Virus genome (UHGV): UHGV-1383976
Length of the DNA: 64,000 nucleotides
Source of the DNA: a virus
Strand: one strand, 5' to 3'
Below, piece by piece: positions 7,634 to 53,344 of the stretch. Position 1 is the stretch's first letter. Each line of letters opens with the position of its first letter. Under the pieces are notes generated by a model. The model saw nothing but the letters and a program-made list of their open reading frames with translations, was not told where the DNA came from and ran no database searches. The position numbers were made by a program, and so were the translations under genes.

Positions 7634-9060
7634 TGAGTAAAAAGATTACTCAGTTCGATGTGCAGCTGTATGGTGATTTACAGCCGTACAACCAAGTCCT
7701 CTCAAAATGTCGTTGCCGCATTTTTTATAAGTATGAAAACCGCAATGGCGGTTTTATTACAGATGAATTTGCTGATAAGCTCGTCGCGACTTTGCCTTAT
7801 GTCCCTGTAAAGGGTATTTATGACAAATTCAATGATGACTATACCGACCATGGCAAGAACCGTGATGAGGGCCGCATTTATGGTATTGTGCCTGAATCAC
7901 GTAACTTTGCGTGGGAGCCGCACGTTGATGACGATGGTGTTGAACGCATTTATGCGTGCTGCGATGTTCTCGTCTTTACGGCCCTTTATCAGGAAGCTAG
8001 TGAAATTATTTCTAAAGGTCAATCAATGGAGCTTTTTGCGCCTTCGATAAAGGGCAGTTGGAAAACAATTCACGGTCAGCGTTTATTTGTATATACTGAT
8101 GCTTGTTTCCTTGGGCTTCAAGCCTTAGGGGACGATGTAGAGCCTTGTTTTGAAGGCGCGGCATTTTTTACTTTATATTCTAACTTACAAGAGGCAGTTG
8201 ACAAGCTTGAGCAATTTGCTTTAGATAATTCAACTGTCGACAATGGAGGACAAGAAATGGATAAACTCAATTTCAAGCTCAGCGATAGTCAGAAGTTCGA
8301 TATGCTTTTCTCTGCGCTGAACCCTGAGTATAATGAGGAAGGCAATTGGAGTGTTGCTTATTCTATTTGCTCTGTCTATGATGAATATGCTATCGCGTAT
8401 GATTATGAAAACAATCGCTACGTGCGGGCTTATTACACCAAGAATGACGAAGACGATTCAATTTCTCTTGGCGAGGTCGTCGAAGTTTATATTGTTGACG
8501 TGACCGAGAGCGAAAAGAAGACTCTCGATACTATTCAGGCAATAAATGGCGGCAGCTTTGAGAAGGCTGACGAAATTTATTCCAAGAATGAAGAACTAAC
8601 CAATCAGGTTTCTACTCTTGAGGGTCAAGTTTCTGAGTTCCAGACTCAAGTTGAAACTTTCAATTCTGAAAAGGAAAATTTTGAACAGCAAATTGTAGAG
8701 CTGAATAACGCAAACGCTACTTTACAAACGGAGAATGAAAATTCTGTCGCAGAACTCTCTACTTTGAAGGAAGAAGTTGAACAGCTTCGCGCATTTAGGC
8801 TCAACGCCGAAACGGCTGAAAAAGAATCAATTCTCCAAAAGTATTCTAAGTCTCTTCCTGAAGAAACTCTCAAGAAATACAGTGAGAGTCTTGAGAAGTT
8901 TGCGATTGCTGATTTGAAGAAAGAATTGGCCTTTGAAATGGTGGAGCATAATCCAAATTTATTCAATTTGGAGACTCCCGCTCAGTACGTCCCGAAAGAA
9001 GTTCATACGGGCGGTATTGAGGATATCTTATCCAAATATACTAATAAAATGGAGGACTAA
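7633..9060 (+). CDS. Putative scaffolding-like protein with long C-terminal coiled coil (475 aa)
   Basis: TAATG overlap with portal stop. Heptad-rich segment (ELTNQVSTLEGQVSEFQTQVETFNSEKENFEQQIVELNNANATLQTENEN...). Lies between portal and capsid genes. Confidence 0.4.
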   Translation: MSKKITQFDVQLYGDLQPYNQVLSKCRCRIFYKYENRNGGFITDEFADKLVATLPYVPVKGIYDKFNDDYTDHGKNRDEGRIYGIVPESRNFAWEPHVDDDGVERIYACCDVLVFTALYQEASEIISKGQSMELFAPSIKGSWKTIHGQRLFVYTDACFLGLQALGDDVEPCFEGAAFFTLYSNLQEAVDKLEQFALDNSTVDNGGQEMDKLNFKLSDSQKFDMLFSALNPEYNEEGNWSVAYSICSVYDEYAIAYDYENNRYVRAYYTKNDEDDSISLGEVVEVYIVDVTESEKKTLDTIQAINGGSFEKADEIYSKNEELTNQVSTLEGQVSEFQTQVETFNSEKENFEQQIVELNNANATLQTENENSVAELSTLKEEVEQLRAFRLNAETAEKESILQKYSKSLPEETLKKYSESLEKFAIADLKKELAFEMVEHNPNLFNLETPAQYVPKEVHTGGIEDILSKYTNKMED

Positions 9061-13162: not shown

Positions 13163-13889
13163 TGAAAATTTTTTCATTGGTGAACCTATTCATTTCAAAA
13201 ACTTATGTAAAATTTATCCCGCAAAAGTTAGAGAAGTTATAACAAATGAAGAGTTAGGTTTATACCAACAACTCCTATTTATAACGCAAGATGAGTTGCG
13301 AGACAAATGGTTTGAAGAGAAAATTGAAGGTGAACCCTTTACGCCATTTCAGTTCGTATTAAATTATGCGCGAGCTGGTGAAGGTCGCGAAGAAACGGTA
13401 AGTCGCGCTTTTCAGTTCTTTATTCACGAACCAGTTTCTTTTTTGTTTGATATGAATATGATTGTCATTGGGGATTTGAAAGAAGAACTCAAAAAAATTG
13501 ATTCTGTTGATGAGTTGCGGCTTTTGAAGGAAGAAGATTATTTTGATTTTCAAAACCTCTTGCGCGAATCATTTGGTGATTCACCAGTTGGCCCACCTGA
13601 CCCGCCTGATCTTGATCCACGTATTGCACGCATCAAAAGATTAGGTCGAAAGAGAGAGAAGCTGGCTGCCAAGAAAGGTTTAAAATTTTCTGATCTAATG
13701 GTATCCATTTGCTGTATGGGGATTGGGATAACGCCACTTAATGTTGGAGAGTTGAGCAAATGCGCAATTTCGGCATTACTTCAGAGCTATCAAGCCAAAG
13801 AAAAATTTGACTTAGACGCTCGGAGTTTACTTGCCGGAGCGGATAAAAATAAGGTAAAAATTGAATATTGGATAAAAAATTTTGAATAA
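13155..13889 (+). CDS. Hypothetical protein (244 aa) preceding major tail protein
   Basis: ATG 13155 overlaps upstream gene by 8 nt. Confidence 0.45.
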   Translation: MTNENFFIGEPIHFKNLCKIYPAKVREVITNEELGLYQQLLFITQDELRDKWFEEKIEGEPFTPFQFVLNYARAGEGREETVSRAFQFFIHEPVSFLFDMNMIVIGDLKEELKKIDSVDELRLLKEEDYFDFQNLLRESFGDSPVGPPDPPDLDPRIARIKRLGRKREKLAAKKGLKFSDLMVSICCMGIGITPLNVGELSKCAISALLQSYQAKEKFDLDARSLLAGADKNKVKIEYWIKNFE

Positions 13890-37630: not shown

Positions 37631-38368
37631 CCAAGAAATCATTTTTCGGTTTGGCGCACACTGCCGGACAGCATAAGTCCCAATTCCTATCGCGTCAGCC
37701 TCATCTTCGCTAACGGAAACATCATACCATTGCTTTGCTAATAAACGCATAGAACTTTTTCGGTCACTCCTCGTGCGCCCTTTGACTCCGCACTCTTGGC
37801 GCCAAACCCCTGTATGGCATAAAGTGTAAGCAATTCCTAACTCAAAGCAACACTCAATCAAAATTCCCTGAAGCCACGCGAGTTGTTGAAATACATCAAC
37901 ACCCATCGTGCGCTTACCTTCACTTTCATTCTGAAGTTGAATGTTCTCTAAGGCCACTAAATCTGGCTGCCAATTATAAAGCATATTGACGAGCCAAACT
38001 TTTACAGCATTGCTGCGCGCAATTGTATCGGGCAATTGTGTTTGATAAGTTCCATATTTGATAAGCTCTTTGTCATCAAAAATTGAAAATCCGGTAATAT
38101 GTGTCGCTTGGTCGAGAGCGAGCACACGAAAAATATTTTTCTTTTTTGGAACAATTTTAGATGTTGCAGCCTCTGTTTTATATACATTAGCTTCACACGT
38201 CGGGCATATGCGTTTTGCACGAAGTTTTTTCCAAGGTGCAAATACGGCATGACCTTCGGGACATTCAAACCGCATTTCTGTTTCAAGATTGGTATATGTA
38301 TCGCTTACGACTTTCCAGCCGTCTTGCTCTAATTCTTCTCTAATTGAATCTAGCGAAATTTTTGCCAT
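37625..38368 (-). CDS. RuvC-family Holliday junction resolvase with N-terminal zinc finger (CPEGH...CPTCE)
   Basis: Motifs LALDQATHITGFSIFD, ALENIQLQ and EADAIGIG consistent with the RuvC-like catalytic D/E/D triad; start overlaps dUTPase stop. Confidence 0.6.
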   Translation of the reverse strand: MAKISLDSIREELEQDGWKVVSDTYTNLETEMRFECPEGHAVFAPWKKLRAKRICPTCEANVYKTEAATSKIVPKKKNIFRVLALDQATHITGFSIFDDKELIKYGTYQTQLPDTIARSNAVKVWLVNMLYNWQPDLVALENIQLQNESEGKRTMGVDVFQQLAWLQGILIECCFELGIAYTLCHTGVWRQECGVKGRTRSDRKSSMRLLAKQWYDVSVSEDEADAIGIGTYAVRQCAPNRKMISWE

Positions 38369-39312
38369 TAGAACTTTCCAGTAGAACCGAAACCGCCCTG
38401 ACGGTCTTCCGCTCCATAAAGAGTTATATCATTTACTTCTTGCCAGCTTATTTTAGGAATTTCGGCAAGAACTAACTGGGCGATTTTTTGACCTTTTGTT
38501 ATGTAGACAGGTGAACCATGGAGAATTGATGTGATGATAGGGTGATGAGTTTCATTATCAAAATCATACGCTATGTCTTTGATCGCTGGCTCATTATTTT
38601 CGAGGATTATGCCAATCTCATCATGGAATCCTTCATCAACTGTGCCTATTCCATTCGCAACACGCATATGGGTGCGAGCTGACAGACCAGACTTTGCGCG
38701 CACTTGTATTTCATAGCCTTTTGGTAAAGCCACTCTCAAGCCCGTTGGAATTATTTTGATTTCGCCGGGGTCAATCGTATAATCGTCGAGTGCAAATACG
38801 TCAAGGCCACTGTCAGTTGTATGAGCATATTCAGGAAGTTTTACTTCATCAGACAATCGCTGTATAGGCACACTTACAACACGACGTGCAATTCGCTCAT
38901 TTTCACCAAGCGCATTTGCAACTATACCAAGAATGGATTTGAAGAAATCTATTTTGATTTGAGAAACTTTGCCATCCAAATTGGTTTGGAGTCTTTCTGC
39001 AATGTCGGCCAGTTCATCTATCATATCTTCAGCCGCGACACCTTGAATTGAAAGGTTCTGCGCAATACCAAGCTGAATCTGTGGGTCTTTGAAAGATGTG
39101 TAGAAATTCTCTAGTACATCTGCAGCAATTACCATAAATTTCTCATCATCAAGACTCATCAGACTCGAAAACGCTTTGACGTATTCATCAGCTTCATCAT
39201 CGTCAATCAGATTTCCAAAGAAGAAAGAAAAGGCTTCGCGCAAGGTCTGTTCGACGTCTATTTCTTCAGGCATTTCAATCGGCTGGCCTGAAATATCTAC
39301 TATATCACTCAT
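38368..39312 (-). CDS. dut: dUTPase (C-terminal ~165 aa) fused to a ~150-aa acidic N-terminal domain of unknown function
   Basis: dUTPase motifs 1 (DSGLDVFA), 3 (GTVDEGFHDEIGIIL) and 5 (RQGGFGSTG) present, with a conserved basic-residue region around QVRAKSGLS; residues 1-150 have no recognisable motif. Confidence 0.85.
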   Translation of the reverse strand: MSDIVDISGQPIEMPEEIDVEQTLREAFSFFFGNLIDDDEADEYVKAFSSLMSLDDEKFMVIAADVLENFYTSFKDPQIQLGIAQNLSIQGVAAEDMIDELADIAERLQTNLDGKVSQIKIDFFKSILGIVANALGENERIARRVVSVPIQRLSDEVKLPEYAHTTDSGLDVFALDDYTIDPGEIKIIPTGLRVALPKGYEIQVRAKSGLSARTHMRVANGIGTVDEGFHDEIGIILENNEPAIKDIAYDFDNETHHPIITSILHGSPVYITKGQKIAQLVLAEIPKISWQEVNDITLYGAEDRQGGFGSTGKF

Positions 39313-39621: not shown

Positions 39622-40908
39622 TCAATCTTTATTTTTCAAAACCAGATTGAGAATTATACCAGCCATAAGAGCAAGTGCAGTAGCAGAAATTGAGAAATCA
39701 GTTCCACCAATAGCAAGGCCGCTTATACCGAGAGAAAGAACCGCCGAAACAATTATCAGATTCTTTTGTCCATTCAGATCAACTTGTTGAAGCATCTTTA
39801 TACCACTACAAGCAATAAAACCATAGAGAACAATAGCTGCACCAGCAAAAACACAAGCTGGGATTGAACTGATAAAAGCTTGAACCGGAACGAAAAACCC
39901 CATAAGTATTAGAATAAGAGCGGCTGTCCCACTAACCTTAGCTGAAGCTACTTTACTAAAGCCCACACACGCGACGCCCTCTCCATAAGAGCAAGCGCCA
40001 AGTCCACCAAGTAAACCACTAACAGCATTTGCAAGTCCTTCACCAGCGAAGATGCGGTTAAGGCCGGGCTTCTGATATAGGTCAATACCAATTATGCCGC
40101 CAAGAGCAGCATGGTCGCTAAGGGCCTCCATCATTGCACTTATTGTATAAGCAATAAACAAAAATATCAAAGGAATAAGCTGTGGCAATTCAATGAATTT
40201 GTACCAATTGACATGAGAGATAGCGAGGTCAGGCAAAGCAAAAAGTCTCATATTTTCAAAAATACTAAAATCTACAACAGGAAAAATATTTGTAATTGTA
40301 AGCGCAACCGCATAAGTATAACCAACTAAAGTGCCAAGCAGAAACGGGAGAATCTTTATAATTCCTTTTGCATAATGTGAAAACAGTGCAATTGCTATCA
40401 TTGTGATGATAGCTATACTAACACCCCACATATTAGTTTCGCCATTTATCTGAACATAAGTCAAGATAAAAGGCATAAGATTAATACCTATAACAACCGT
40501 GACCGCGCCGATCAATGATTTGGGGAAAATTTTATATATATTTTCAACGGGAACACGACTAAAGATAAGACCAAAAATTGTATAAACAACCCAAATTACA
40601 AAACAACCAATAATTGCACCTTCATAACCACAAGAAGCAAGTGCAATTAGGATAGGAGCGACGAAAGCACCAGAATTCGAGATGAACATCGGAGACTGGC
40701 CTTTTGTTATAAGAATATAGGCCAAAGTACCGCAACCCGCGCCGACAAGTGCACCAGATATGGCAACGCCGCAAATATTGGCAATAAGCACTGTTGCCAC
40801 AAAAACTGATAACATCATCTGAATGGCAAACAGAATCAGCTTGCCAAAAGGAATTCTATCTCCAAGTGAATAAATCATTCGTGAGTCGCCTCCCAGTCTT
40901 GAAGCCAT
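39622..40908 (-). CDS. Nucleobase:cation symporter (NCS2; xanthine/uracil permease family) membrane transporter (428 aa)
   Basis: ~12-14 TM segments; glycine-rich helices typical of UraA/PyrP-like permeases (ISGALVGAGCGTL, GLLGGLGACSYGEGVACVGFSKV). Confidence 0.65.
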   Translation of the reverse strand: MASRLGGDSRMIYSLGDRIPFGKLILFAIQMMLSVFVATVLIANICGVAISGALVGAGCGTLAYILITKGQSPMFISNSGAFVAPILIALASCGYEGAIIGCFVIWVVYTIFGLIFSRVPVENIYKIFPKSLIGAVTVVIGINLMPFILTYVQINGETNMWGVSIAIITMIAIALFSHYAKGIIKILPFLLGTLVGYTYAVALTITNIFPVVDFSIFENMRLFALPDLAISHVNWYKFIELPQLIPLIFLFIAYTISAMMEALSDHAALGGIIGIDLYQKPGLNRIFAGEGLANAVSGLLGGLGACSYGEGVACVGFSKVASAKVSGTAALILILMGFFVPVQAFISSIPACVFAGAAIVLYGFIACSGIKMLQQVDLNGQKNLIIVSAVLSLGISGLAIGGTDFSISATALALMAGIILNLVLKNKD

Positions 40909-41381
40909 TTTATTACGTCTTCAATATTATCCACTAAAACGCCACCTTGTTTAATAAGGCCAACAGTATAAAGGTTCTGATAACAAAACTGACTCTCACC
41001 AATATCAAGACGCATTATTTCGGCTTTGGCGTCATTGTATGTGCGACTTGCCATACGACTATCGGTACAAATACCGATAATCATTTTCTTGTCTCCGCGC
41101 GTGATCTTTTCGTGAAATTTGCCAATTTCTGCACTTGTTCCAGAAGGAATCACATCGCCATCAATGCAAGCAACAAGGACATCAGTTTCATCCAAGCGCG
41201 CATTATCTCCATCCGCAATCTGCCAAGAGCTTGCACATTTTGTTTTATCATTTATTTCTTTATTTTCCAGAGGATTATAGAGGTTGATTCCGGGAATAGC
41301 ATCACGAATTTGTGCGCTCCATTTCTCATTTCTCATTCTATCTCCTTCACAAAAGATTGGCCCCGCCAAATAAACATTCAT
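40875..41381 (-). CDS. Nucleoside 2-deoxyribosyltransferase (NDT) family protein
   Basis: YLAGPIF motif at N-terminus; D..D and catalytic-Glu-like GTSAEIG block. Start chosen at internal ATG 41381 (MNVYLAGP) with GGAGGA RBS. Overlaps permease start. Confidence 0.65.
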   Translation of the reverse strand: MNVYLAGPIFCEGDRMRNEKWSAQIRDAIPGINLYNPLENKEINDKTKCASSWQIADGDNARLDETDVLVACIDGDVIPSGTSAEIGKFHEKITRGDKKMIIGICTDSRMASRTYNDAKAEIMRLDIGESQFCYQNLYTVGLIKQGGVLVDNIEDVIKWLQDWEATHE

Positions 41382-41737
41382 TCGTCTATATCCTCCAAAT
41401 AAATTATTTTTTTCTCTAATTGCTTTGCCCATTCAATTTCACGTTTTGTGGATTCACCAATATAGCCATTCTTGTTTATTACAAAAATCATATCAGACAT
41501 TGAAATTTTAGCTAGATGCATACGGTCGAGCTGTTGTTTTTCTTTCTCTGTCATTGTATCACCGTAATGCCCATAAATCTCAGGACTTAGGACAATATAG
41601 CCTGCAATTGTAAATTCTTTGCGATATTGCTGAAACAAAGGAAGAAACTTAGTACTGCCACACAATGTAATAATGGGAAACTCATTTTGGTAGTTCCGCA
41701 CTAAAATTTTATTAGTTATTTGTTGTCCCACATTCAT
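41378..41737 (-). CDS. Second NDT-like / Rossmann-fold nucleoside-modifying protein (119 aa from ATG; track ORF starts at TTG 41779)
   Basis: LCGSTKF...YIGESTKREIEWA blocks resemble the NDT/DUF4406-type fold; start ambiguous (TTG 41779 or ATG 41737). Confidence 0.4.
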   Translation of the reverse strand: MNVGQQITNKILVRNYQNEFPIITLCGSTKFLPLFQQYRKEFTIAGYIVLSPEIYGHYGDTMTEKEKQQLDRMHLAKISMSDMIFVINKNGYIGESTKREIEWAKQLEKKIIYLEDIDE

Positions 41738-41966
41738 CCTCGATTCCCATTGCTGCACTAGCTGCTTTATAGCCCTCAATATAGCCCATTGTATGTTCTT
41801 TATTCAGCCTTTCTTGAATATTCTTATAAACTTGCGGGAATAAACTTGCTATCACAAACTCAAAAGAAAGTTCAAGCTCATCTGTGTTTCCATTATACGT
41901 TTTTTCTACTTGCTCAATTACTCGTTTTATGTGCGTGAATCGAACCTTATCTAAATTTTCGTCCAT
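41712..41966 (-). CDS. Hypothetical protein (84 aa)
   Basis: AAAGGAG RBS; overlaps FNT stop. Confidence 0.4.
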   Translation of the reverse strand: MDENLDKVRFTHIKRVIEQVEKTYNGNTDELELSFEFVIASLFPQVYKNIQERLNKEHTMGYIEGYKAASAAMGIEDECGTTNN

Positions 41967-42544
41967 AATGTCTCCTTTCCATAATGTAGGGTTAAAGCGC
42001 CAAATGAATTACCTAATGCAGCAACTAAAATTTTTCGGAAGGAAATTGGTATAGAGCCTGCCGCTGAATAAAACATATTGGCAATGCAGTGATCAAAACC
42101 ACAATAAACAAATAAAAACACAGGGAGCATTATAGCAAGAAGGGACTTTGTTCGTTTGAATCCTTCAACTGCGCAATAGACACATACTCCGCACAAGTAG
42201 GAGCTAAAGAGTAAATTGGCATATGGCATTTCTGCTTTTGAAGAAGCAACTGAGTCGGCCAAAAATGGATTTACCCACCACACCAATAAGCCCAATAGCG
42301 CAGCACCAGCAAAATTTGCAATAAGCATTATACTTAAATCAATAAGATCTGCGCTATCACCTACATAAGCAATACGGCCAGTATAAAGTGGAAGGCTAAG
42401 TTCTAAAATTGAAACAAGCCCAAAGCTAAATAACAGTGCACCCAATATCTTATTTTGGCTAATGAGGTTGGCATATCCGCCAACCCCAATTAGCATACCT
42501 GCAAAGAAAGCAGGAATTATATTATAATTATCTTTTTTTATCAT
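41951..42544 (-). CDS. Compact formate/nitrite transporter (FNT; FocA-like) family channel (197 aa)
   Basis: YCGFDHCIANMF closely matches the FocA TM5 signature (ASGFEHSIANMF) including the central His; TM6 LGNSFGAL resembles FNT GN(I/L)xGG; six TM segments, unusually short. Confidence 0.65.
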   Translation of the reverse strand: MIKKDNYNIIPAFFAGMLIGVGGYANLISQNKILGALLFSFGLVSILELSLPLYTGRIAYVGDSADLIDLSIMLIANFAGAALLGLLVWWVNPFLADSVASSKAEMPYANLLFSSYLCGVCVYCAVEGFKRTKSLLAIMLPVFLFVYCGFDHCIANMFYSAAGSIPISFRKILVAALGNSFGALTLHYGKETLWTKI

Positions 42545-42550
42545 ATTTAT

Positions 42551-42579
42551 ATTATATCAAAATTTTATTGAAAAATCAA
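42551..42579 (-). promoter_or_regulatory. sigma-70-like promoter (minus) TTGATT-17-TATAAT overlapping nrdG stop
   Basis: Minus-strand reading TTGATTTTTCAATAAAATTTTGATATAAT. Confidence 0.6.
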
Positions 42580-43085
42580 ATTTCGAGTTCGCAAATGTGC
42601 GCTTTTTCCAAAGTTTGGTGAACATCTATAAGGCGCTGATTACGAGAGCCACGGAATGGCAAAGTTAAATCACGCTGCTCAAGAATAAAAGGACCATCTA
42701 CCACAACATCGCAAAGTTGGAGTGTTGTTGAAATGCGGCGAGGGGGATTGAAATCCTCCCAGTCCAAGTGGTAGCCAGTATAGAGCCAAATGTCCTTATC
42801 AGGAAATTTTTCTTTGATTTCCCTTAACAACTTATAGATAGTATTGTTGTTTTGTGGCTCAAGTGGATGACCGCCAGAAAGAGTAATGCCTTTTACCCAA
42901 GGTTTAGACAGGGCGTCAAACAATTCTTCTTTTGCGGCATCATCAAAAGGCTTACCTGCACAAAAGTCCCAAGTTTCAGGATTATGACATTCTTTACAAT
43001 GGAGGGAACATCCGGATACCCAAAGGACGACACGTACACCAAAGCCATTTGCGATGTCGCATTTTGTTATTTTGATATAATTCAT
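42576..43085 (-). CDS. nrdG: Anaerobic ribonucleotide reductase activating protein NrdG (radical SAM)
   Basis: CDIANGFGVRVVLWVSGCSLHCKEC motif. Start at ATG 43085 (GGGAGA RBS) overlapping the nrdD stop by 1 nt (TAATG). The upstream in-frame extension is rejected. Confidence 0.85.
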   Translation of the reverse strand: MNYIKITKCDIANGFGVRVVLWVSGCSLHCKECHNPETWDFCAGKPFDDAAKEELFDALSKPWVKGITLSGGHPLEPQNNNTIYKLLREIKEKFPDKDIWLYTGYHLDWEDFNPPRRISTTLQLCDVVVDGPFILEQRDLTLPFRGSRNQRLIDVHQTLEKAHICELEI

Positions 43086-45241
43086 TATGATTCTCCCAAA
43101 TGTAAGACGCGCTCTTTTATTTCTTGGGTACGGCCAAAATTCCAAAAATTAGAGCCAATATAGCCGCAAGTACGACGTGCAACATTCAAGGTAGAATGGT
43201 CGCGATTACCACAATTTGGACAATACCATTCCATATTATCATCAATAAGAATTTCGCCATCAAAACCACACTTCTGACAGTAGTCACTTTTTGTGTTAAG
43301 TTCAGCATACATTATGTTATCGTAAATAAACCTATAAAGCTCCAAGACAGCAGGAATGTTGTTTTGTAAATTAGGAACCTCTACATAGCTTATTGCACCA
43401 CCCGGACTAAGTTTTTGAAACTCAGCCTCAAAAGCAAGTTTATCAAAGGCATTGATTTCTTCAAAAACAGGGACATGATAACTGTTTGTAATATAATTAC
43501 GATCATGCTCATCAAGTTTAATAAATATATCATTACCAAATCGCTGCTTCAAACAACGTGCAAACTTATATGTTGTACTCTCAATAGGAGCGCCATAAAG
43601 AGAATAATCAATTTTTTCGACAGCTTTCCATTCAGCACACTTCTCATTTAAACGTGCCATTACTTCAAGAGCAAAAGGTTTTCCATCAGTTTGTGTATGA
43701 CTATGTCCTGTCATATATTTTACGCACTCATAAAGACCAGCATACCCAAGTGAAATTGTTGAATAGCCATTATGAAGCAACTTATCAAGCCTCTCACCTT
43801 TTTCAAGGCGGGCGAGTGCGCCATTTTGCCAAAGAATAGGGGCAACATCACTAAGGGTTCCCTCAAGACGTTTATGCCTAAGCTGAAGTGCTTTGTGGCA
43901 CAGTTCAGTGCGCTCTTCAAATAACTGCCAAAACTTATCAATATTGCCGCCTGAGCTAAAAGCCAAATCTGGTAAACTGATTGTAACAACACCTTGGTTG
44001 AAACGACCGTAGTATTTTGGGTTATTATTTTCATCAATATAAGGAGTTAGAAAACTTCTACAACCCATACAAGGATAGCAACGCCCCTTACCGGTTTTAT
44101 CTTTTTTTAATTCCAGCATCATTTTTTCAGAAATAATATCGGGGACAAGGCGTTTTGCTGTACATTTTGCTGCGAGTTCTGTTAAATAAAAATATTTGTC
44201 GCCCGGCCGTAAATTATCAGGTTCAAGGACATAAAGTAACTTAGGAAATGCAGGTGTGATATAAACGCCTTTTTCATTCTTGAAGCCTAAAATACGTTGC
44301 TTAATAAACTCCTCTATCAACATTGCCAATTCATTCTTATATTCTTCTGTTTCATTTAAATACATAAACACAGAAAGAAATGGTGCTTGGCCATTTGTTG
44401 TTGTCATTGAATTGACTTGATAATTGAAAGTCTGAACAGCATCAACGACTTCTTTTTTTGTATCAAGTTGCGCATACTTGCACGCACTTTCATCATCAAA
44501 GCCCCAATCCTTATACTTTTTAAGATAAGCCTCATAAGAACTTCTAACAAAAGGAGCAAGGTGCGTAAGAGTAATAGTGGCACCGCCATACGAAGAAGAA
44601 GCAACACCAAGAATTACTTGCGTTGCAATCGTAGAAGCTGTTAAAATTCTGTGTGGCTTCTCAATTTTAACATTGTTGATTACAGTTCCATTTTGAAGAA
44701 CATCTTCCAAGTTGATAAGATCGCAATTATGGAGCGTTTTCTGACCAAAATAATCAATATCGTGGAAGTGTATAATGCCTTTCTCGTGAGCATCTACAAT
44801 TTCTGGAGGAAGAAGAAATCGTTTAGAGATATCTTCACTAACAATACCTGCCATGTAATCGCGCTGTGTTGTTACAAGATCAGCGTTTTTGTTTGAATTT
44901 TCCGCGTTCCAATAATCACTTGTGCCGCTAATTAGTTCAAGTAAATCTTTGTCTGTTGTATTACCTTCGCGCGCAAGCCTATGTTTATACCTATATTCAA
45001 CATAGCGCTCAGCTACGTCTTTTCTTGAACTAGCCATAAGCCGCTCAACTACTAAGTCTTGAATTTCTTCAACACTCAAATCTCTATTAAGTTTTTCTAT
45101 TTGAGTGGCCACCATTCGTGCCTTGTTTTTGGCATAAGATGTTTCACGTCCATCTACTTCCAAAAAGGCTTTGAGAATGGCAACTCTAATTTTCTCTTTA
45201 TCAAATGGAACCGTAGTTCCATCACGTTTTATGACGTACAA
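43085..45241 (-). CDS. nrdD: Anaerobic ribonucleoside-triphosphate reductase NrdD (class III RNR)
   Basis: N-terminal ATP-cone (VIKRDGTTVPFDKEKI). C-terminal Zn ribbon CxxC..CxxC and glycyl-radical motif RRTCGYIG. TTG start at 45241 supported by GGAGG 7 nt upstream. Confidence 0.9.
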   Translation of the reverse strand: MYVIKRDGTTVPFDKEKIRVAILKAFLEVDGRETSYAKNKARMVATQIEKLNRDLSVEEIQDLVVERLMASSRKDVAERYVEYRYKHRLAREGNTTDKDLLELISGTSDYWNAENSNKNADLVTTQRDYMAGIVSEDISKRFLLPPEIVDAHEKGIIHFHDIDYFGQKTLHNCDLINLEDVLQNGTVINNVKIEKPHRILTASTIATQVILGVASSSYGGATITLTHLAPFVRSSYEAYLKKYKDWGFDDESACKYAQLDTKKEVVDAVQTFNYQVNSMTTTNGQAPFLSVFMYLNETEEYKNELAMLIEEFIKQRILGFKNEKGVYITPAFPKLLYVLEPDNLRPGDKYFYLTELAAKCTAKRLVPDIISEKMMLELKKDKTGKGRCYPCMGCRSFLTPYIDENNNPKYYGRFNQGVVTISLPDLAFSSGGNIDKFWQLFEERTELCHKALQLRHKRLEGTLSDVAPILWQNGALARLEKGERLDKLLHNGYSTISLGYAGLYECVKYMTGHSHTQTDGKPFALEVMARLNEKCAEWKAVEKIDYSLYGAPIESTTYKFARCLKQRFGNDIFIKLDEHDRNYITNSYHVPVFEEINAFDKLAFEAEFQKLSPGGAISYVEVPNLQNNIPAVLELYRFIYDNIMYAELNTKSDYCQKCGFDGEILIDDNMEWYCPNCGNRDHSTLNVARRTCGYIGSNFWNFGRTQEIKERVLHLGES

Positions 45242-46581: not shown

Positions 46582-49500
46582 TTACTCACCCCTTACGTGC
46601 GTTGTAATGCGACCATATTCATCAATGTCTGTTATTTCTTCGATTAGATGATATGGAGTTCGGGAGTATTTCTTTGCCAGAAACCCGTCATCCCTTCTAA
46701 TACCACACACAATAATCTTGTTGCCGCGTGAAAAGATCGATTTTTCAATAATATGCTTCTTTCCATCTGGCTCTCTTTCAGAAATTTGTTTGTCATAATT
46801 CGCAAATGCTTCTCCAAAAATTTTGACTTGAACAACACCATCTTTTGTCAATAACGAAACAATCTTTTTTGCTTTATCTCTATCCAACACAGTCCCGCAA
46901 ATACGATGTATTCTATAAATCGGAATCGGCGCGCTATCACTATCTTTGCCGCGTGGTTTGAAATAAGTTTCAACGTCAGGCTGCTCTTTCAGCTTGAAAA
47001 AGTCTGAAAAACCTTGAGCGCGCTCATCAATATTTTGCAATTCATGCTCATGGAAATAACACGAAACACTATCCATTTCCCACTTACTTATCGAGCCAAG
47101 ACAATACTTATTCCATACATCTCGCGTCAACCGCTCATTCACGGTGTCTAATAACTCGTCGTGATTTTCTTTTATCCATTTGCGAACATTATCCATATAT
47201 TTCTTATAGATTTTATCCCAAGCTGTGATACTAATTTTGAAACCACTTTCAGTTTCATCACTTGTACTCAAACAGTCGAGTGAGAAGTTTTTATCGAGAA
47301 AATTCAACGCGATATTATCCAGTCCATAGAACGAGGAATCTAACTTCATTTTTTTGAGGTATTTCGTGAAATTATAAACACGACGTTCAAAGTCAAGTTT
47401 TTCTGGTAGCATCCCAAAATTTATCAACATTGCCATATTTTGAAGGGTAATGCGTTTTTTTGTATCACTAATTAGGCCGACATATTCACGCATTAGATTT
47501 ACTCTATCGCCAAAGGCATCAAAAGCGCCGCATTTTATAAGGTTTATCATTTGTGGCTTGTTAATTTTGACTTTAGAGAGAAAGTCTGGAATTGATGTGT
47601 AGGGACGATTGGCAATTATGGATTTGACGATGTCTTCGCCGACCTTGACGATGCCGCTCATACCGTAGCGAATTGTTGAGTTTTCAACATCAGGGGAGAA
47701 GGTAAAAGTGGATTTATTGATATCAGGAGGAGAAATAGAAATCCCGGCCATTCGCATCTTACCAATCGCCGACGCAATTTTACCATAGTTGGTTGTTTTG
47801 ACTTTTTTCTTTTTCTTCTTTATATCAATTTTTTCTTCTTCTTCTTCATCATCGTCGTCATCATCTTCGGTGTCATCGACAAATTCTTCAATACAGTTAT
47901 TATAACTATATTCAATAATGTTTTCTGACGTTTCATCTTCATCATCATTTGACTCATTGCCGCCACTATCGCTAATCAAACACGCGCAATTCCAAAAAAT
48001 TGTTGGAAAACGATATGCAAGATTCATTTCCTGCAAAGCTACAAGCGAATAGGAAAGAGTGTGTGCGCGGCAGAATGAATATCCTCTCTGGACTCTGAAC
48101 AAAACATCCCATACATAATGGGCAAGAGTCATATCACAACCTTTTTCTTTTGCATTTTCAAAATAGGCTTTTTCACATTCATCAAAGAGTTTACCTTGTT
48201 TTTTTGCAATCGCCTTTCGACATTTATCCGCAAAAGTCAGATTATTTCCTCCAAGCCTTTCTTCCTGCAGAAGCTGCATCATTCCTTCTTGACTCTCACA
48301 TATACCACTCGTTATCGCATTATGTCCAATTAACCATTTTATATCTTCATTTTTTAATCCATATTGAATCATTTCGTCTTGCCATTCATTGATATTCAAA
48401 CGATATCTTGCCCACATATCAAGTGGCTGCTCGGCTCCTTTTTCAGGAGCCATTAGACGAATTACTGAATTCAAAACAGCTAATTCACTAACGTTTTTAG
48501 GATGAGTTAGTGCTATTCCAGAAATGCCACTTGGCTGTTCCATTTGGAATAAACTGGATATCTTATGATTCCAAACCATTTCCCACATTTCTGGTGCAGT
48601 TCGTTCAAGATTATATATGCCAATTACACTTTCATAAGTTTCACGTAATGTTGGCTTTCGCTCTATATAACCATAATCACATAATAAGTCTAGCTCATTA
48701 TGTATTTTATCAAGGGCTTCAATTGACAACATATCAATTTTGATTAGCGATGCATCCTCCGCATCGTGAAGCTCAAAAGCCGTGATGACTGTGCCATCAG
48801 GCGCGCGAGTTAACGCTGTCGATTCCGTAAAAGGCTCGTCAACGAAGATTACTCCACCGGCGTGAACACCAATGCCGCAAATTAGCCCCTCAATTTTTGA
48901 AGCAACTTCCCAAACATCGCTGTAGGTTTTCATTGCTTCAACAAATTGTTTTACTGGCTTAAAACCTTTGTCTTCATCGCCCTTTATACATTGAGTAAGT
49001 GAGCGAAGTTGCCCACGATCGGCTGGAATCAGAGACGCCAAATAGGATGCTATATCAACATCAATTCCCAAGCCGCGGCAGGCCGTTAAAATTGCCGATT
49101 TAGATTTTTCTGTTTTGAATGTAATAACATTCGCAACTCTGTCTTCTCCATAAAACTCACGGAACTTCTGTAAAACTTGTGCGCGACGTCCACCTTCAAT
49201 ATCGGTATCGACATCCAATACTGAAGCTCGTTCGGGATTAAGAAAACGCCAATGAAATACTTGAGTTTCTTCTTGGACTGGATTTATCTGTGTTATATCC
49301 AATGCATATAACAAAGTAAATCCTGCACCCGAACCACGCCCCGGCCCGACAAGAGAACCAGCTTCCCAACATAAATCAATATTTTTCTGCAGATTCAGAA
49401 AATAAGTCGACCAATGTGTATGATTCGTTATTGACGAACGCCATGTATCATCAAGACAAATATTTATCTCATCATACGCTCGTTTGTTCTGCAAGCCCGG

Positions 49501-50571
49501 CTTCCGCTGGATGCCATCAATAATCGCCCAAACCAGTTTTCTATCACCCCAATAATCAGAGTTATAGAAAGTTTCCAAATAAGGGATTTCTTGTTTGAGA
49601 ATATCATATGCTGCCTCATCTTCAGGAAAAGTTTTCCAATAAAGTTCTGGAATTTTTAAGGGCCGCATTAGTGAAAAATCCTCACACATTTCACCTATTT
49701 TGAGAATATTGCAATATGCGAGTTGAAGTTGCTCTTCAGTGAAATAGTTGAAATACTCTTCTATTTCTTTTGTATCCATAAGATACGTAGTTGCATAGAA
49801 ATCATCTACTTCTCGCTCACCATTTTGTGCATTAAGATATGCTTTATGAATCGCGCAGTCTTCTTTTTTGAGATAATGGCTGTCAGTTGTTATAACATAG
49901 GAAATGTCATATTTAACTGATAATTCAAGCAACTTCTTATTTACATAAATCTGCTCTTTGTTATAACTTGGTTGCATTTCAAAAAAGAAATTACCGTGCC
50001 CAAAAAGTTTATCCAAAGACAAAATCCAGTTTTCAATTTTGCCATTGAGTGAGCTATCATTTCGCGCTTTGAGAAGCTGAGTAGGAAGACAGCCGCCAAG
50101 ACAAGCTGTCATTCCCACAATATGCCCCGGATTGGCTCCCACGATTTCAAACAAATCACTATAATAAGTTGGCATACGACGCATACCTCGCGCCATATAA
50201 CTACGCAATCCTGCGCGAGTAGATAATTCTCTAATTTGTTTATGCCCGATTGCATCTTTAGCTAACAAGATAAAATGATAATATTTATCTTGTCCCGCAA
50301 TAAAATTCGATGCGTTTAACCCATTTCGACAAAGATAAATTTCATTTCCTTGAATGAATTTGAAATCAGGACATTTTTCTTTTACTTTTTTATAATACTT
50401 TTCTGCCTTAATCGCGCCAGATATTGATTCATGGTCTGTAAGAGCGACGACTTTATGACCTAACTCGATGGCGCGATCAATTAGGTCTGAGACTTTTATT
50501 ATACAGTCTCGAAGCCTTTCATTAGAATAATCCGAATGATTATGTAGCGATCCGGGATACGGAATATTCAA
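46582..50571 (-). CDS. DNA polymerase III alpha-like replicative polymerase with N-terminal PHP domain (1329 aa)
   Basis: PHP motifs (YPGSLHNHSDYS, VALTDHESISG). DnaE-like size. Internal acidic/basic low-complexity insert (DDTEDDDDDDEEEEEKIDIKKKKKK). TTG start with AAAGGAAAGGGG RBS. Confidence 0.8.
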   Translation of the reverse strand: MNIPYPGSLHNHSDYSNERLRDCIIKVSDLIDRAIELGHKVVALTDHESISGAIKAEKYYKKVKEKCPDFKFIQGNEIYLCRNGLNASNFIAGQDKYYHFILLAKDAIGHKQIRELSTRAGLRSYMARGMRRMPTYYSDLFEIVGANPGHIVGMTACLGGCLPTQLLKARNDSSLNGKIENWILSLDKLFGHGNFFFEMQPSYNKEQIYVNKKLLELSVKYDISYVITTDSHYLKKEDCAIHKAYLNAQNGEREVDDFYATTYLMDTKEIEEYFNYFTEEQLQLAYCNILKIGEMCEDFSLMRPLKIPELYWKTFPEDEAAYDILKQEIPYLETFYNSDYWGDRKLVWAIIDGIQRKPGLQNKRAYDEINICLDDTWRSSITNHTHWSTYFLNLQKNIDLCWEAGSLVGPGRGSGAGFTLLYALDITQINPVQEETQVFHWRFLNPERASVLDVDTDIEGGRRAQVLQKFREFYGEDRVANVITFKTEKSKSAILTACRGLGIDVDIASYLASLIPADRGQLRSLTQCIKGDEDKGFKPVKQFVEAMKTYSDVWEVASKIEGLICGIGVHAGGVIFVDEPFTESTALTRAPDGTVITAFELHDAEDASLIKIDMLSIEALDKIHNELDLLCDYGYIERKPTLRETYESVIGIYNLERTAPEMWEMVWNHKISSLFQMEQPSGISGIALTHPKNVSELAVLNSVIRLMAPEKGAEQPLDMWARYRLNINEWQDEMIQYGLKNEDIKWLIGHNAITSGICESQEGMMQLLQEERLGGNNLTFADKCRKAIAKKQGKLFDECEKAYFENAKEKGCDMTLAHYVWDVLFRVQRGYSFCRAHTLSYSLVALQEMNLAYRFPTIFWNCACLISDSGGNESNDDEDETSENIIEYSYNNCIEEFVDDTEDDDDDDEEEEEKIDIKKKKKKVKTTNYGKIASAIGKMRMAGISISPPDINKSTFTFSPDVENSTIRYGMSGIVKVGEDIVKSIIANRPYTSIPDFLSKVKINKPQMINLIKCGAFDAFGDRVNLMREYVGLISDTKKRITLQNMAMLINFGMLPEKLDFERRVYNFTKYLKKMKLDSSFYGLDNIALNFLDKNFSLDCLSTSDETESGFKISITAWDKIYKKYMDNVRKWIKENHDELLDTVNERLTRDVWNKYCLGSISKWEMDSVSCYFHEHELQNIDERAQGFSDFFKLKEQPDVETYFKPRGKDSDSAPIPIYRIHRICGTVLDRDKAKKIVSLLTKDGVVQVKIFGEAFANYDKQISEREPDGKKHIIEKSIFSRGNKIIVCGIRRDDGFLAKKYSRTPYHLIEEITDIDEYGRITTHVRGE

Positions 50572-50634: not shown

Positions 50635-51729
50635 TTAAAAGCTCCACTCCGCGTTTTCGACTTCAACATCTACGATTTGCAATTGGGGGGTGTAATTTCC
50701 TAACCATTCATTAACATTGGGTTTACCCACAATTGTTAAACACATTTCAGGCCATTTATGAAGCTTTTCAATCAAGTCTTTTGCACGGAACTTTATGTAG
50801 GTAATTCCATTTTTTTCAATTCGTATTGTATCTTGATTCTTGCCGATTATTTTTACATCATCGGGTTTTATATAGAGGTTTGTTATCGCTATAAGACTCT
50901 GAGGATTATTTTGACCCCAAACTCTTTCGTAGCGTGCCAAATCAAAAATAATGTTGCTTATATCACTATCACTTGCCTTGCGAACGAAATCGACGTCATA
51001 GTTATTATTACCAAAGTCATAAGATGCCAATTGGGTATTAGAAAGATTCAGTAGTTCATTGCGGCTGTTGGCTGGAATAGCAAACCCAGCAGCGTTAGCG
51101 TGCCCTTGCACATAGTCAAACAATGACGTATCTAACAAATAGTCTTTGAACGACGTGAGCGCACTCTGCGAAAGTCCTCTAATACTTCCCTTTATCATTC
51201 CATCTGAGCCTTCGCGTCCTATCATTGTTGGCTTATGGTATCGCGCGCTAAGTTGCGTGGCAATTAGACCATTCAGCTCAGGAGGAAAGTCATCATCGTC
51301 ATCAAGTTTAACAAACAAAATTTTATTTTCTAGCAAATCATACTTGTGTATCTTATACTCAAGTTGCTCGGTTGCTTTTTCTTTTGCCTTATCTTGATGC
51401 GACTTTGCATTTGTACATTCGCGCGTGCTTTCAATTGCGAGCTTTTCAAGTGTTCCTTTTGCCCCGCGCTTGCCACTTGGCACAAGTGTTTCACCCATAA
51501 CAACTGCACGATAAAGGCGCTCTTTTTCCTCTTGAGAACCTACACGAATCATTGCATTTATCAATGGTGTTATGTAAAATGCAACAGTTGTCGGATTGAT
51601 CTCACCGCCCATTGAGTAGGACTGTTTTTCAACAAGAGTTTTGAGAAAAAAGTTTTGTATGTTAGAACAACCACGCTGAACAATAAATTGATTTTCATAA
51701 GACAACATACTCATCATATCGCTTATGCT
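50635..51729 (-). CDS. Exon 2 of split DHH-family (RecJ-like) phosphoesterase: linker + DHHA1 domain
   Basis: DHHA1 signature GHANAAGFAIP. N-terminal SDMMSMLSYENQFIVQRG aligns with the RecJ ADVVPLDGENRILVKQG continuation after motif IV. An in-frame stop at 51730-51732 lies upstream. Confidence 0.6.
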   Translation of the reverse strand, partial: SISDMMSMLSYENQFIVQRGCSNIQNFFLKTLVEKQSYSMGGEINPTTVAFYITPLINAMIRVGSQEEKERLYRAVVMGETLVPSGKRGAKGTLEKLAIESTRECTNAKSHQDKAKEKATEQLEYKIHKYDLLENKILFVKLDDDDDFPPELNGLIATQLSARYHKPTMIGREGSDGMIKGSIRGLSQSALTSFKDYLLDTSLFDYVQGHANAAGFAIPANSRNELLNLSNTQLASYDFGNNNYDVDFVRKASDSDISNIIFDLARYERVWGQNNPQSLIAITNLYIKPDDVKIIGKNQDTIRIEKNGITYIKFRAKDLIEKLHKWPEMCLTIVGKPNVNEWLGNYTPQLQIVDVEVENAEWSF

Positions 51730-52717
51730 TTAGCCTATATGTTTCCATATAGAATAGACTATCTTTTGCTATAAAAATATAGTGTGTCTCTTTCGATTTT
51801 CAAAGGTTTCATTTCTTAACACCTTGCTACGTATCAATAGTAGCTCTACTCCCCAGCATTTCAACCTAAGGGATAGTCGTTACAGGCTTATTTTACGTGC
51901 TTCCATGTTATATTATCGCAGACTCGTGAAATAGTAATATAAGAAACAAAAGAATATTGTTGACTAATTTGAGTTTTTGTTTTTCCTTGAGAATAAAGAT
52001 TTCGAATATTACGGACGTCCTGCTCCGTCAGTTTGGCTTTGACATTATTTTCTCCTCTATTTGCGATTGATGAATACTCTTGACGAGTTTTCTTTTCTGC
52101 AAATAATTCTTGTCCAATTTCAGGGTATGTTGTTCCCAACCAAACTTTTTCAAATACAGAGAACTTTCTGTCAGAAAAGTCTCTATATACTTCGCATTTT
52201 CTTTCCCCGTTTTTCTTCCTTTTTCTAATCCATAAAATTTCTTCATCAGAAAAAGAACGTCTAGTTTTTCTTTTTTCTTGCCCGCCTTCGGTTAAATTAT
52301 ATCCAAAATCTTTTTCATTCGCTCGGAAATATTTTATCCAGTATTTTTCTTTTTCATCTAATTCTTCGGGCAAACATTCTTCAAGGATAACAATTCTTTC
52401 TACTCGACCAAAATATTTTTTTATAGCTAAATCACAAGCCTGTTTATTTGAGCTGGGAGTATTATGCTCCCACATCCGTCTTTTTATATTAATACTTTGT
52501 CCAATATAACATTTATTATTTGGAAAATCAATCTTGTAAATACCACAAATATTTTGCTCTAAATCAGAAATTATAACTTGTTTCATAGTCCTCCTTTTTG
52601 GAGGCACGTAAAAAATTCCCACGGGATTACCATGCTTTTCAGTTTAGGTTTCCCCGTTAGCATATATTTCTATATACCCTTACTGATAAGTAAGAAAAGA
52701 CACATTCGCACCATTCA
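51730..52717 (-). mobile_element. Group I intron (td-like architecture) with GIY-YIG homing endonuclease ORF in a peripheral loop; boundaries approximate
   Basis: Separates the DHH and DHHA1 halves of one gene. 5' part has an acggggaa...aaucccgug pairing like T4 td P4-P5. 3' part has acgacuaucccuuagg (P7-like, G-binding GACUA). HEG is preceded by its own AAGGAGG RBS. Confidence 0.6.
51888..52586 (-). CDS. GIY-YIG homing endonuclease (intron-encoded)
   Basis: GIYKIDFPNNKCYIGQS...R..EH motif. Start at internal ATG (MKQVIIS) with AAGGAGG RBS; track ORF extends to a GTG at 52622. Coordinates +/-1. Confidence 0.8.
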   Translation of the reverse strand: MKQVIISDLEQNICGIYKIDFPNNKCYIGQSINIKRRMWEHNTPSSNKQACDLAIKKYFGRVERIVILEECLPEELDEKEKYWIKYFRANEKDFGYNLTEGGQEKRKTRRSFSDEEILWIRKRKKNGERKCEVYRDFSDRKFSVFEKVWLGTTYPEIGQELFAEKKTRQEYSSIANRGENNVKAKLTEQDVRNIRNLYSQGKTKTQISQQYSFVSYITISRVCDNITWKHVK

Positions 52718-53344
52718 GTCGATGCCTAATGCAGCTAAATCTGTATAATTCCAAGCCCAATCGTGTCCAAATGCATCATCAAGTGCTCTACAAAACTGCC
52801 ATACAACACCAGCACCACATAGGTCTTTATTCTTGTAGGCGAAGCTTGTCTGATTATTTATAAGAATCATATTGGACGGGATTTCACTTATAGGTTCTAA
52901 TTCGTGATGGTCAAGAACCAATACGGGGCAATCTAATTGTTTAATATACTCGCCATCATTAGTCCCGGCATCTGGAATTAGAACACCGCTCCAACTATGT
53001 TCAAGTAATTGTTCCATCACATCACTACAACCGTGCTGCTTACCACTATGTATTATCTGTATAATATGTTTTACAGGATTGAGTCGCTTTATATATTGAT
53101 AAATAATGCCACTTGATGTCAAGCCATCAGCGTCGCAATCACAAATAATAGCCAGTGGTTTTTCATCATCAATGTTTTGCTTGATAAATTCAATACCCTT
53201 ATCCACATTGTCAAGTGCCCGCCAGCTTTGCAGGCAGGTTTCGTCAGGATTCAAGAACAGCTCAACATTTTCAATCCCTCTAAGCCGTAAAATTTGTTCT
53301 CCATAATTATCATATATTCCATCATTTGTCAATTTATATTTCAC
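52715..53344 (-). CDS. Exon 1 of split DHH-family (RecJ-like) phosphoesterase: DHH domain
   Basis: Motif I ICDCDADG, DHH motif LVLDHHE, motif IV-like CGAGVVWQF; GTG start; ORF terminates at a stop a few codons into the intron. Confidence 0.7.
   Translation of the reverse strand: MKYKLTNDGIYDNYGEQILRLRGIENVELFLNPDETCLQSWRALDNVDKGIEFIKQNIDDEKPLAIICDCDADGLTSSGIIYQYIKRLNPVKHIIQIIHSGKQHGCSDVMEQLLEHSWSGVLIPDAGTNDGEYIKQLDCPVLVLDHHELEPISEIPSNMILINNQTSFAYKNKDLCGAGVVWQFCRALDDAFGHDWAWNYTDLAALGID

Follow-up and report, generated by a model that had tools for sequence, protein, structure and literature searches.

A compact formate/nitrite-transporter-family channel in phage anaerobic ribonucleotide reductase operons, a candidate formate importer

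UHGV virus genome UHGV-1383976, analysed here as a stretch of 64,000 nucleotides (the window), encodes a 197-aa channel from the FNT (formate/nitrite transporter) family next to nrdD and nrdG, the genes of a class III (anaerobic) ribonucleotide reductase (RNR) and its activase. Sequence relationships and gene context make it probable that this phage channel, which we call mini-FNT, is a formate importer fuelling the class III RNR. With a little more reserve, we favour a broader picture in which phages of the anaerobic gut and rumen repeatedly captured a minimal, probably ungated FNT into nrdD-nrdG as a reductant-supply module, while the same subfamily serves anaerobes as a formate importer for purine and one-carbon (C1) metabolism under ZTP control. 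Formate as the substrate, the inward net direction of transport, joint transcription of the three genes, a pentameric channel and a benefit to phage fitness are the parts of this account that we infer.

A complete FNT pore in a 197-residue phage protein

The three genes lie on the minus strand of the window in the order nrdD (43085..45241), nrdG (42576..43085) and mini-FNT (41951..42544). The mini-FNT product is a genuine member of the FNT family, matching the Pfam profile PF01226 (Form_Nir_trans) with 80.6 bits (gathering cutoff 34.6, E=1.5e-22) over profile positions 22–232 of 240. An AlphaFold2 monomer model built from 18 homologues, with a predicted local distance difference test score of 84.7 and a predicted template modelling score (TM-score) of 0.82, has six transmembrane (TM) helices, of which TM2 and TM5 are broken. 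The elements follow one another as TM1, TM2a, Omega loop, TM3, a short helix bearing K103, TM4, TM5a, S loop, TM5b and TM6, with helices at residues 9–28, 32–48, 67–91, 97–105, 108–132, 136–148, 153–162 and 169–196. When the model was compared with the PDB using Foldseek, the top matches were all FNT channels (the hydrosulfide channel HSC, FocA, NirC, PfFNT and LCIA; probability 1.00, query TM-scores 0.70–0.84). Both profile search and model thus bear out the family assignment made in a preliminary description of this DNA.

Residue equivalences were taken from HMMER alignments to Vibrio cholerae FocA and Clostridioides difficile HSC, with roles as given in PMC5525234 and Escherichia coli FocA numbering. 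The central constriction (F39, F145, H152 and A155, equivalent to FocA F75, F202, H209 and A212) and the cytoplasmic slit (L43, L53, T55 and V122, equivalent to FocA L79, L89, T91 and V175) are complete and canonical, and K103 and N179 (FocA K156 and N262) are also kept. FocA F90, N172, G206 and N213 correspond to Y54, G119, G149 and N156 in the window protein. L53 and T55 lie within the Omega-loop motif LPLYTG (residues 51–56; 42377..42394, minus strand), and H152 and A155 within the S-loop/TM5b motif GFDHCIANMF (residues 149–158; 42071..42100, minus strand), the pore signature named in the preliminary description. Across 57 nrdDG-linked phage copies and 80 genomic copies, H152, T55, F39, F145, A155, L43, L53, G149 and N179 are invariant; K103 is nearly so in the same 137 homologues, and the position equivalent to V175 holds V, I or M. 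The pore His and Thr, H152 and T55, were invariant in every alignment made. The protein presumably assembles as a homopentamer like other FNTs.

Comparison of the window with the related contigs L001–L003 gave a ratio of nonsynonymous to synonymous substitution rates (dN/dS) of 0.11–0.15 for the mini-FNT gene, which is therefore maintained by purifying selection. The copy in L002 (L002:8001-8594) stops four codons early (ending …GKETL) and loses WTKI, a change that is apparently tolerated.

The partner reductase is of the formate-dependent type

The 718-aa ORF (open reading frame) of nrdD encodes a class III ribonucleoside-triphosphate reductase with ATP-cone and Gly_radical domains (PF13597, E=1.6e-178; NF006732, 862 bits against a cutoff of 657), and nrdG encodes the radical-SAM activase of NrdD (TIGR02491, 175 bits against a cutoff of 126; Fer4_12, 154.8 bits). 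The listed nrdG ORF spans 42576..43145 (189 aa); its true start is the ATG at 43085, which overlaps the nrdD stop as TAATG and has the Shine-Dalgarno sequence GGGAGA ahead of it. Among solved structures, the window NrdD is closest to the enzymes of Streptococcus thermophilus (9d3x, 459 bits) and phage T4 (1h78, 377 bits), and the commoner phage NrdD type is closest to that of Prevotella copri (415 bits). All three are formate-dependent NrdD1 enzymes (PMC12662201, PMC11226230, PMC4493059), a type diagnosed by an Asn on the sixth strand where thioredoxin-type enzymes have Cys (PMC11226230, PMC4493059). The window NrdD (N415), that of L002 and each of the nine aligned FNT-linked NrdDs have this Asn, and C173, C394 (the catalytic Cys), N415 and G693 (the radical Gly) are invariant in those nine. 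Judged by these residues, the window NrdD and every linked NrdD checked are of the formate-dependent type, in agreement with the earlier premise that NrdD uses formate as its reductant.

L002 (IMG/VR 3300045988_162796), a relative otherwise 93–96% identical to the window, carries a swapped nrdD (L002:5217-7439) with 34% identity to that of the window, the P. copri type replacing the S. thermophilus/T4 type. It has nevertheless kept nrdG (95%) and the FNT gene (93%); the FNT gene therefore travels with either NrdD type.

Many phage nrdD genes beside mini-FNTs are split into two matching blocks 0.7–2 kb apart (loci L096, L108–L110, L114, L116, L135–L140, L148, L152 and L162), a pattern suggestive of introns, inteins or insertions of homing endonucleases. 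At other loci, adjacent ORFs contained LAGLIDADG domains.

FNT genes recur beside nrdD and nrdG in divergent phages

A scan of IMG/VR with the mini-FNT family alignment recovered 79 viral loci, 76 of them outside the lineage of the window, with 27–41% identity to the window protein. Linkage was scored by tblastn, the queries being the window NrdG and a pair of divergent NrdDs, and loci with no nrdDG within 8 kb were counted as unlinked. The same-strand adjacency first noticed in the window, where the FNT gene stands directly after nrdD-nrdG, recurred: 56 of the 79 loci have nrdD and/or nrdG as a same-strand neighbour of the FNT gene. The prevailing gene order was nrdD-FNT-nrdG (34 loci), followed by the window order nrdD-nrdG-FNT (11 loci), nrdD-FNT (7 loci), FNT-nrdD(-nrdG) (3 loci) and FNT-nrdG (1 locus). 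Gaps between the FNT gene and nrdDG were mostly shorter than 100 nt, and some of the genes overlapped by 4 or 25 nt.

Clustering of the linked FNTs gave 13 groups at a threshold of 50% identity and 5 at one of 40%; pairwise identities went as low as 24%, and bacterial FNTs stood interleaved with them in a neighbour-joining tree. Because the arrangements other than nrdD-FNT-nrdG are scattered and divergent FNTs interleave with bacterial ones, the pattern suggests that FNT genes came to stand beside nrdDG in phages several times independently, and speaks against a single inherited accident. Surveys in the reverse direction, starting from nrdD, found a mini-FNT within 4 kb in 5 of the 80 loci that had the NrdD type of the window and in 18 of 80 with the other NrdD type; they added about 16 linked contigs, which brings the number known to at least 70. 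On these samples, the FNT gene is an optional third gene of the phage nrdDG cassette.

A word-indexed search had returned five close homologues as well as twelve distant ones (P0006–P0017) in phage-like contigs without nrdDG; the twelve suggested that the adjacency is lineage-specific, a suggestion overturned by the IMG/VR alignment scan. Megablast of the 39–47 kb region against GenBank phages gave no match, tblastn of the FNT against the same phages gave only two unannotated faecal phage fragments, neither with nrdD, and PHROGs v4 held no family for the window mini-FNT or for two divergent phage FNTs.

One viral locus stands out for its surroundings. In L141 (L141:3688-14183; IMG/VR 3300045988_172743, 181 kb), the mini-FNT gene (8001-8540) is set within an array of more than 20 tRNA genes, with a transfer-messenger RNA just upstream (7455-7829, 115 bits) and, at 13398-13553, a stretch matching the 3' part of OLE RNA with 95.6 bits, which is unusual on a phage contig.

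Some bacterial relatives are tied to purine and one-carbon metabolism

A scan of GTDB representative genomes found more than 560 relatives, and the counts given here cover the best 80. Their sources are Clostridia, Bacilli and Bacteroidales of the gut and rumen, a few other groups and Methanomassiliicoccales, the archaeal genes being found in metagenome-assembled genomes (MAGs) from gut and rumen samples (L063, L068 and L083). None of the 80 loci had nrdD or nrdG within 6 kb, and a Pfam census of nearest neighbours was diverse, with no dominant partner beyond purM and purN. In five loci the mini-FNT gene lay between purM and purN in purE-C-F-M-FNT-N-O-H-D-L operons, and in six it adjoined fhs, the gene for formate–tetrahydrofolate (THF) ligase. 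The ZMP/ZTP riboswitch (RF01750) was found directly upstream of, and co-oriented with, the mini-FNT gene at 10 loci (46–61 bits, gathering score 39) and also headed four of the pur operons containing it; 16 further bacterial mini-FNT loci checked had no ZTP riboswitch. Taken together, a ZTP riboswitch, pur operon or fhs context was present in 20 of the 80 loci.

Genes under the ZTP riboswitch are switched on by a shortage of 10-formyl-THF; typical members of its regulon are fhs, pfl, purH, folD and glyA (PMC2864571, PMC7266159). Most simply, a bacterial mini-FNT in this regulon would supply formate to Fhs. The bacterial context is a second, unrelated tie to a formate-consuming enzyme and points to uptake. 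A different arrangement occurs in two Oscillospiraceae/Faeciplasma genomes, in which a lysine riboswitch (L074:3442-3613, L087:3443-3615) precedes the mini-FNT locus, with lysA directly upstream and fhs about 1.5 kb further, unlike the ZTP-controlled arrangement.

These contexts bring up an alternative, that formate imported by the phage channel mainly feeds the formate–THF ligase of the host and its 10-formyl-THF pool, for purine and thymidylate synthesis, and not specifically NrdD. The pur-operon, fhs and ZTP-riboswitch contexts of the bacterial mini-FNTs fit this, as does the wider nucleotide block of the window, in which the FNT gene is accompanied by deoxyribosyltransferases, a nucleobase permease and a dUTPase. 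However, the conserved phage neighbour is nrdD or nrdG, often with the FNT gene between them, and the tblastn survey found no fhs or pur gene in any viral locus. Bacterial mini-FNTs share the riboswitch or the pur operons of the ZTP regulon of Firmicutes; by contrast, a search for this riboswitch in the window and in 18 viral loci without nrdDG found none, and the phage copy appears to be coupled to nucleotide reduction instead of folate formylation. We consider a role mainly for the host enzyme unlikely, and feeding Fhs and feeding NrdD are not mutually exclusive.

A compact subfamily distinct from FocA

An exhaustive profile search over 1.84 billion cluster representatives returned 4190 relatives of the mini-FNT at E<=1e-3 and 507 at E<=1e-30; the best 150 were nearly all 155–250 aa long, and mostly 180–215. 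Members of the subfamily have about 170–215 aa with 10 or fewer before TM1, a description that the window protein fits, and share the motifs AGxLIG, GAxLFS, LxLYTG(K/R), GFEHC(I/V)A(D/N) and GNS/T. Small size is therefore the norm of the subfamily, and the window protein is no truncation. The preliminary description had it about 80 aa shorter than typical FNTs; this holds against solved FNTs (257–309 aa, a difference of 60–90 aa), but the brevity is not peculiar to the window protein. The TM1-TM2, post-Omega, TM3-TM4 and TM5b-TM6 loops are all shorter, and the cytoplasmic N-terminal helix of about 30 aa is missing, TM1 beginning at residue 9 and FocA alignments starting at FocA residues 33–52. 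A classification of FNTs published in 2017 recognized eight subgroups, with N-termini of 25–55 residues (PMC5525234), and the compact class is not among them. By these sequence comparisons, the mini-FNTs are a large, undescribed compact subfamily of FNTs.

Several findings weigh against formate import on behalf of NrdD. Of the viral FNT loci, 23 of 79 are unlinked to nrdDG, although one of them has a divergent NrdD found by Pfam scan only, and the unlinked loci are still those of phages (Gp23-type capsid, portal, Pol III and DnaB). A single nrdD-FNT-nrdG clade accounts for about 40 of the linked loci, and only 6–22% of the sampled phage nrdD loci have an FNT. Scores against the FocA/fnt equivalog models are far below cutoff (TIGR04060, 50.1 against 290.1 bits; TIGR00790 (fnt), 51.2 against 232.3 bits; NF008069, 18.7 bits against 440), with the enterobacterial FocA, FocB and NirC models at about 18 bits against cutoffs of 293–499; by this measure the window channel is not a FocA orthologue. 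The N-terminal helix, which in FocA interacts with PflB, and the C-terminal Y-L-R motif both matter for FocA function (PMC5572259), and the mini-FNT has neither: in place of the I/L-Y-L-R/K cap after TM6, its C-terminus ...LTLHYGKETLWTKI has only Y-G-K, inside a lineage-specific insertion that is absent from other members of the family. A profile of 100 mini-FNTs scored 82.9 bits against V. cholerae FocA, 75.7 against HSC, 69.9 against NirC and 67.5 against E. coli FocA, and is thus about equally far from FocA, HSC and NirC, so that sequence alone assigns no substrate. Nor do the pore residues identify it, because formate, nitrite and hydrosulfide channels have the same FFHA and LLVT sets (PMC5525234), and the position of FocA Asn172 is Gly in most members of the subfamily, a replacement that could change selectivity. 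Finally, FNTs are bidirectional, and the inward direction is therefore read from context only.

The earlier label "FocA-like" accordingly stands at the level of the superfamily (PF01226 and fold), but not for FocA proper. The mini-FNT shares with FocA of E. coli and V. cholerae (TCDB 1.A.16) the Pfam family, the fold, the Phe/Phe/His/Ala constriction, the Leu/Leu/Thr/Val slit, the vestibule Lys and the TM6 Asn, with formate as the proposed common substrate; it differs in being some 85 residues shorter, phage-encoded and linked to nrdDG, without linkage to pflB. Pyruvate formate-lyase (PFL) was not found among the window ORFs scanned (39.6–46.6 kb and 50.6–62.3 kb), and was not among the recurrent mini-FNT neighbours in the 80 genomes.

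The non-discriminating pore and the equidistant profile would also suit a channel for another anion, such as nitrite, hydrosulfide, lactate/acetate or bicarbonate, acting for example in detoxification or pH control. The Gly at the N172 position is specific to the family, and the best Foldseek matches of the model were to HSC (query TM-scores 0.74–0.78), which is alike in fold and pore architecture. NirC (nitrite), FdhC, PfFNT (lactate) and LCIA are also alike in fold and pore architecture, with no subfamily-level match to the mini-FNT. Against such a substrate, the two unrelated contexts of the subfamily, NrdD in phages and Fhs with purine C1 metabolism under the ZTP riboswitch in bacteria, are both formate-consuming; the neighbours include no recurrent gene for nitrite reductase, sulfite reductase or lactate, and the asrABC, nirBD and fdh contexts typical of HSC, NirC and FdhC are absent around the mini-FNT. 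Conduction of another anion, which would account for neither context, seems improbable to us.

Proposed role in phage nucleotide reduction

If the mini-FNT imports formate, the phage would express nrdD, nrdG and mini-FNT together as one unit in an anaerobic host, in the order nrdD-nrdG-FNT in the window and nrdD-FNT-nrdG in most other phages. The channel, placed in the host membrane, would let formate/H+ (formic acid) in from the gut or rumen milieu, and may also recapture formate exported by the host. NrdD would then oxidize the formate to CO2 while reducing ribonucleoside triphosphates (NTPs) to deoxyribonucleoside triphosphates (dNTPs), in the reaction NTP + formate -> dNTP + CO2. As the FocA helix is absent, the channel is probably not under PflB gating. 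We estimate that a genome of 130 kb, at 2 nt/bp and a burst of 50–100, would require about 1–3 x 10^7 dNTPs, which, if NrdD supplied all of them, would correspond to tens of mM formate in a 1-fL cell; reductant supply might thus plausibly become limiting.

The preliminary description left it undecided whether the channel supplies or vents formate. Supply fits both the consumption of formate by NrdD and the ZTP, pur and fhs contexts of the bacterial relatives. Venting of formate or formic acid, for instance to relieve acid stress from the pyruvate formate-lyase of the host, would draw on the bidirectionality of FocA-type channels and their export of formate in fermentation (PMC8914244). But the linked NrdD consumes formate, so that loss of reductant would harm phage dNTP synthesis, and ON control by the ZTP riboswitch in bacteria is a sign that C1 units are in short supply, not in excess (PMC2864571, PMC7266159); venting is accordingly very unlikely.

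Least probable of all is a non-metabolic role (holin-like permeabilization or superinfection exclusion) or a neutral passenger: one distant homologue does lie two genes downstream of a Hydrolase_2 cell-wall hydrolase (L004) and some phage copies sit amid mobile elements (TnpB, LAGLIDADG), but an FNT pore that is complete and invariant, together with a dN/dS near 0.12, speaks for a conserved channel function, the gene is found in nucleotide-metabolism or replication modules and not in lysis modules, and repeated capture beside nrdDG is not expected of a passenger. A holin or lysis protein in the strict sense (1–4 TM helices, beside an endolysin) was ruled out by the six-TM FNT fold and by the location of the gene between nrdG and deoxyribosyltransferase genes.

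Expression of the FNT gene

The window gene had been credited with its own promoter overlapping the nrdG stop. The motif is present: a putative TTGATT-17-TATAAT site (42551..42579, minus strand; 10 of 12 consensus matches) has TG just before the -10, its -35 overlaps the nrdG TGA stop (42578..42576), and both hexamers are invariant in the window, L001, L002 and L003 while neighbouring bases vary. Such sites are, however, no more frequent than chance in the 8 kb scanned (27, against 25.1 expected from shuffles), and most related cassettes have the FNT gene inside the operon, with nrdD before it (in some cases overlapping it) and nrdG after it. The -10 ends 6 nt ahead of the FNT ATG, so that a transcript from this site would be a leaderless mRNA; no Shine-Dalgarno sequence precedes the FNT ATG, whereas the nrdG and orf84 starts each have one. 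Between nrdG and the FNT gene, the scan of the 8 kb region showed no terminator-like site on the minus strand. Since the FNT gene lies inside the operon in most other phages, co-transcription with nrdDG is the default expectation, and an extra promoter for the FNT gene is possible.

Relation to known systems and significance

FNT channels, class III RNRs and the concept of phage auxiliary genes are all of known kinds. The apparent novelty lies in the compact subfamily itself, in the ZTP and purine setting of its members and in the repeated occurrence of its genes within nrdDG operons of phages. A full-text literature search found no description of phage FNT genes or of FNT-nrdD linkage, and the names that UniProt and nr give to MAG-derived copies are automatic only ("Formate/nitrite transporter [Caudoviricetes sp.]", "[Siphoviridae sp. 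ctTnV63]"). Phage T4 likewise encodes a formate-dependent class III RNR and its activase, but neither T4 nor other reference phages have a transporter in the nrdD-nrdG cassette.

The cyanophage phosphate-binding protein PstS is a phage auxiliary transport gene product. Like PstS and the nicotinamide-mononucleotide (NMN) transporters, of which one from Lactococcus phage AM4 is present in the BFVD list, the mini-FNT would be a virus-encoded uptake component for a replication-limiting nutrient. Unlike them, it would carry the electron donor used by an enzyme of the phage, and its gene is embedded in the operon of that enzyme. If our reading is true, the phage mini-FNTs would represent a new class of auxiliary metabolic gene, a channel importing a stoichiometric reductant and built into the operon of a phage enzyme, and DNA synthesis by phages of the anaerobic gut and rumen communities, in which fermenters trade formate as an intermediate with methanogens or acetogens, could be limited by the availability of formate. 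It would further assign a role to an extensive uncharacterized FNT subfamily, present in Clostridia, Bacilli, Bacteroidales and Methanomassiliicoccales with more than 500 clusters at E<=1e-30, and would join that subfamily to the ZTP regulon. At about 180–200 aa and without the FocA gating domain, the mini-FNTs are the smallest complete FNT pores among the proteins found here, which makes them attractive as minimal models of the FNT transport mechanism and for engineering formate uptake.

Neighbouring genes and other features of the window

The phage nature of the window is supported by PHROGs matches on the plus strand (a portal and a tape measure of 2690 aa) and by capsid-module proteins; its closest relatives are IMG/VR contigs of 75–132 kb. 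The cassette lies in a same-direction gene run on the minus strand (38.4–50.6 kb). Directly after it comes orf84 (41712..41966, minus strand), a small conserved protein of 84 aa whose start overlaps the 3' end of the FNT gene by 16 nt and for which no Pfam, NCBIfam or PHROG match was found. Homologues with 32–49% identity stand directly downstream of nrdG in 11 divergent viral loci. Members of this family have 65–88 aa and a conserved core SFEFxxxSxFP...NIK...GYxEG (copies include L095:9053-9247, L107:9050-9289, L113:9032-9295 and L132:2860-3093), and orf84 may be a fourth member of the cassette.

The same-strand nucleotide-metabolism block continues with a DUF4406/Ndt-like gene (41378..41779), a nucleoside 2-deoxyribosyltransferase gene (40875..41432), an NCS2 nucleobase permease gene (39622..40908) and a dUTPase fusion (38368..39312), all on the minus strand. 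With the permease (428 aa, uracil/xanthine-type; PF00860, 185.7 bits; phrog_20031, function unknown), the nucleotide module contains two transporters, and the position of the permease gene beside deoxyribosyltransferase-like genes and the dUTPase fusion suggests base salvage. dUTPase homologues were found near the cassette in 29 of the 76 other viral loci.

At the upstream end of the run lies the gene for DNA polymerase III alpha (46582..50571, minus strand; 1329 aa), separated from nrdD by two small or unknown ORFs. The polymerase contains a low-complexity insert that is strongly acidic and then basic (…NDDEDETSEN…DDTEDDDDDDEEEEEKIDIKKKKKKVK…). Further along, a RecJ-like exonuclease looks split (50635..53344, minus strand) into a DHH-domain ORF (52715..53344) and a DHHA1/RecJ_OB ORF (50635..51717), with a GIY-YIG endonuclease ORF (51888..52622) sitting between the two halves.

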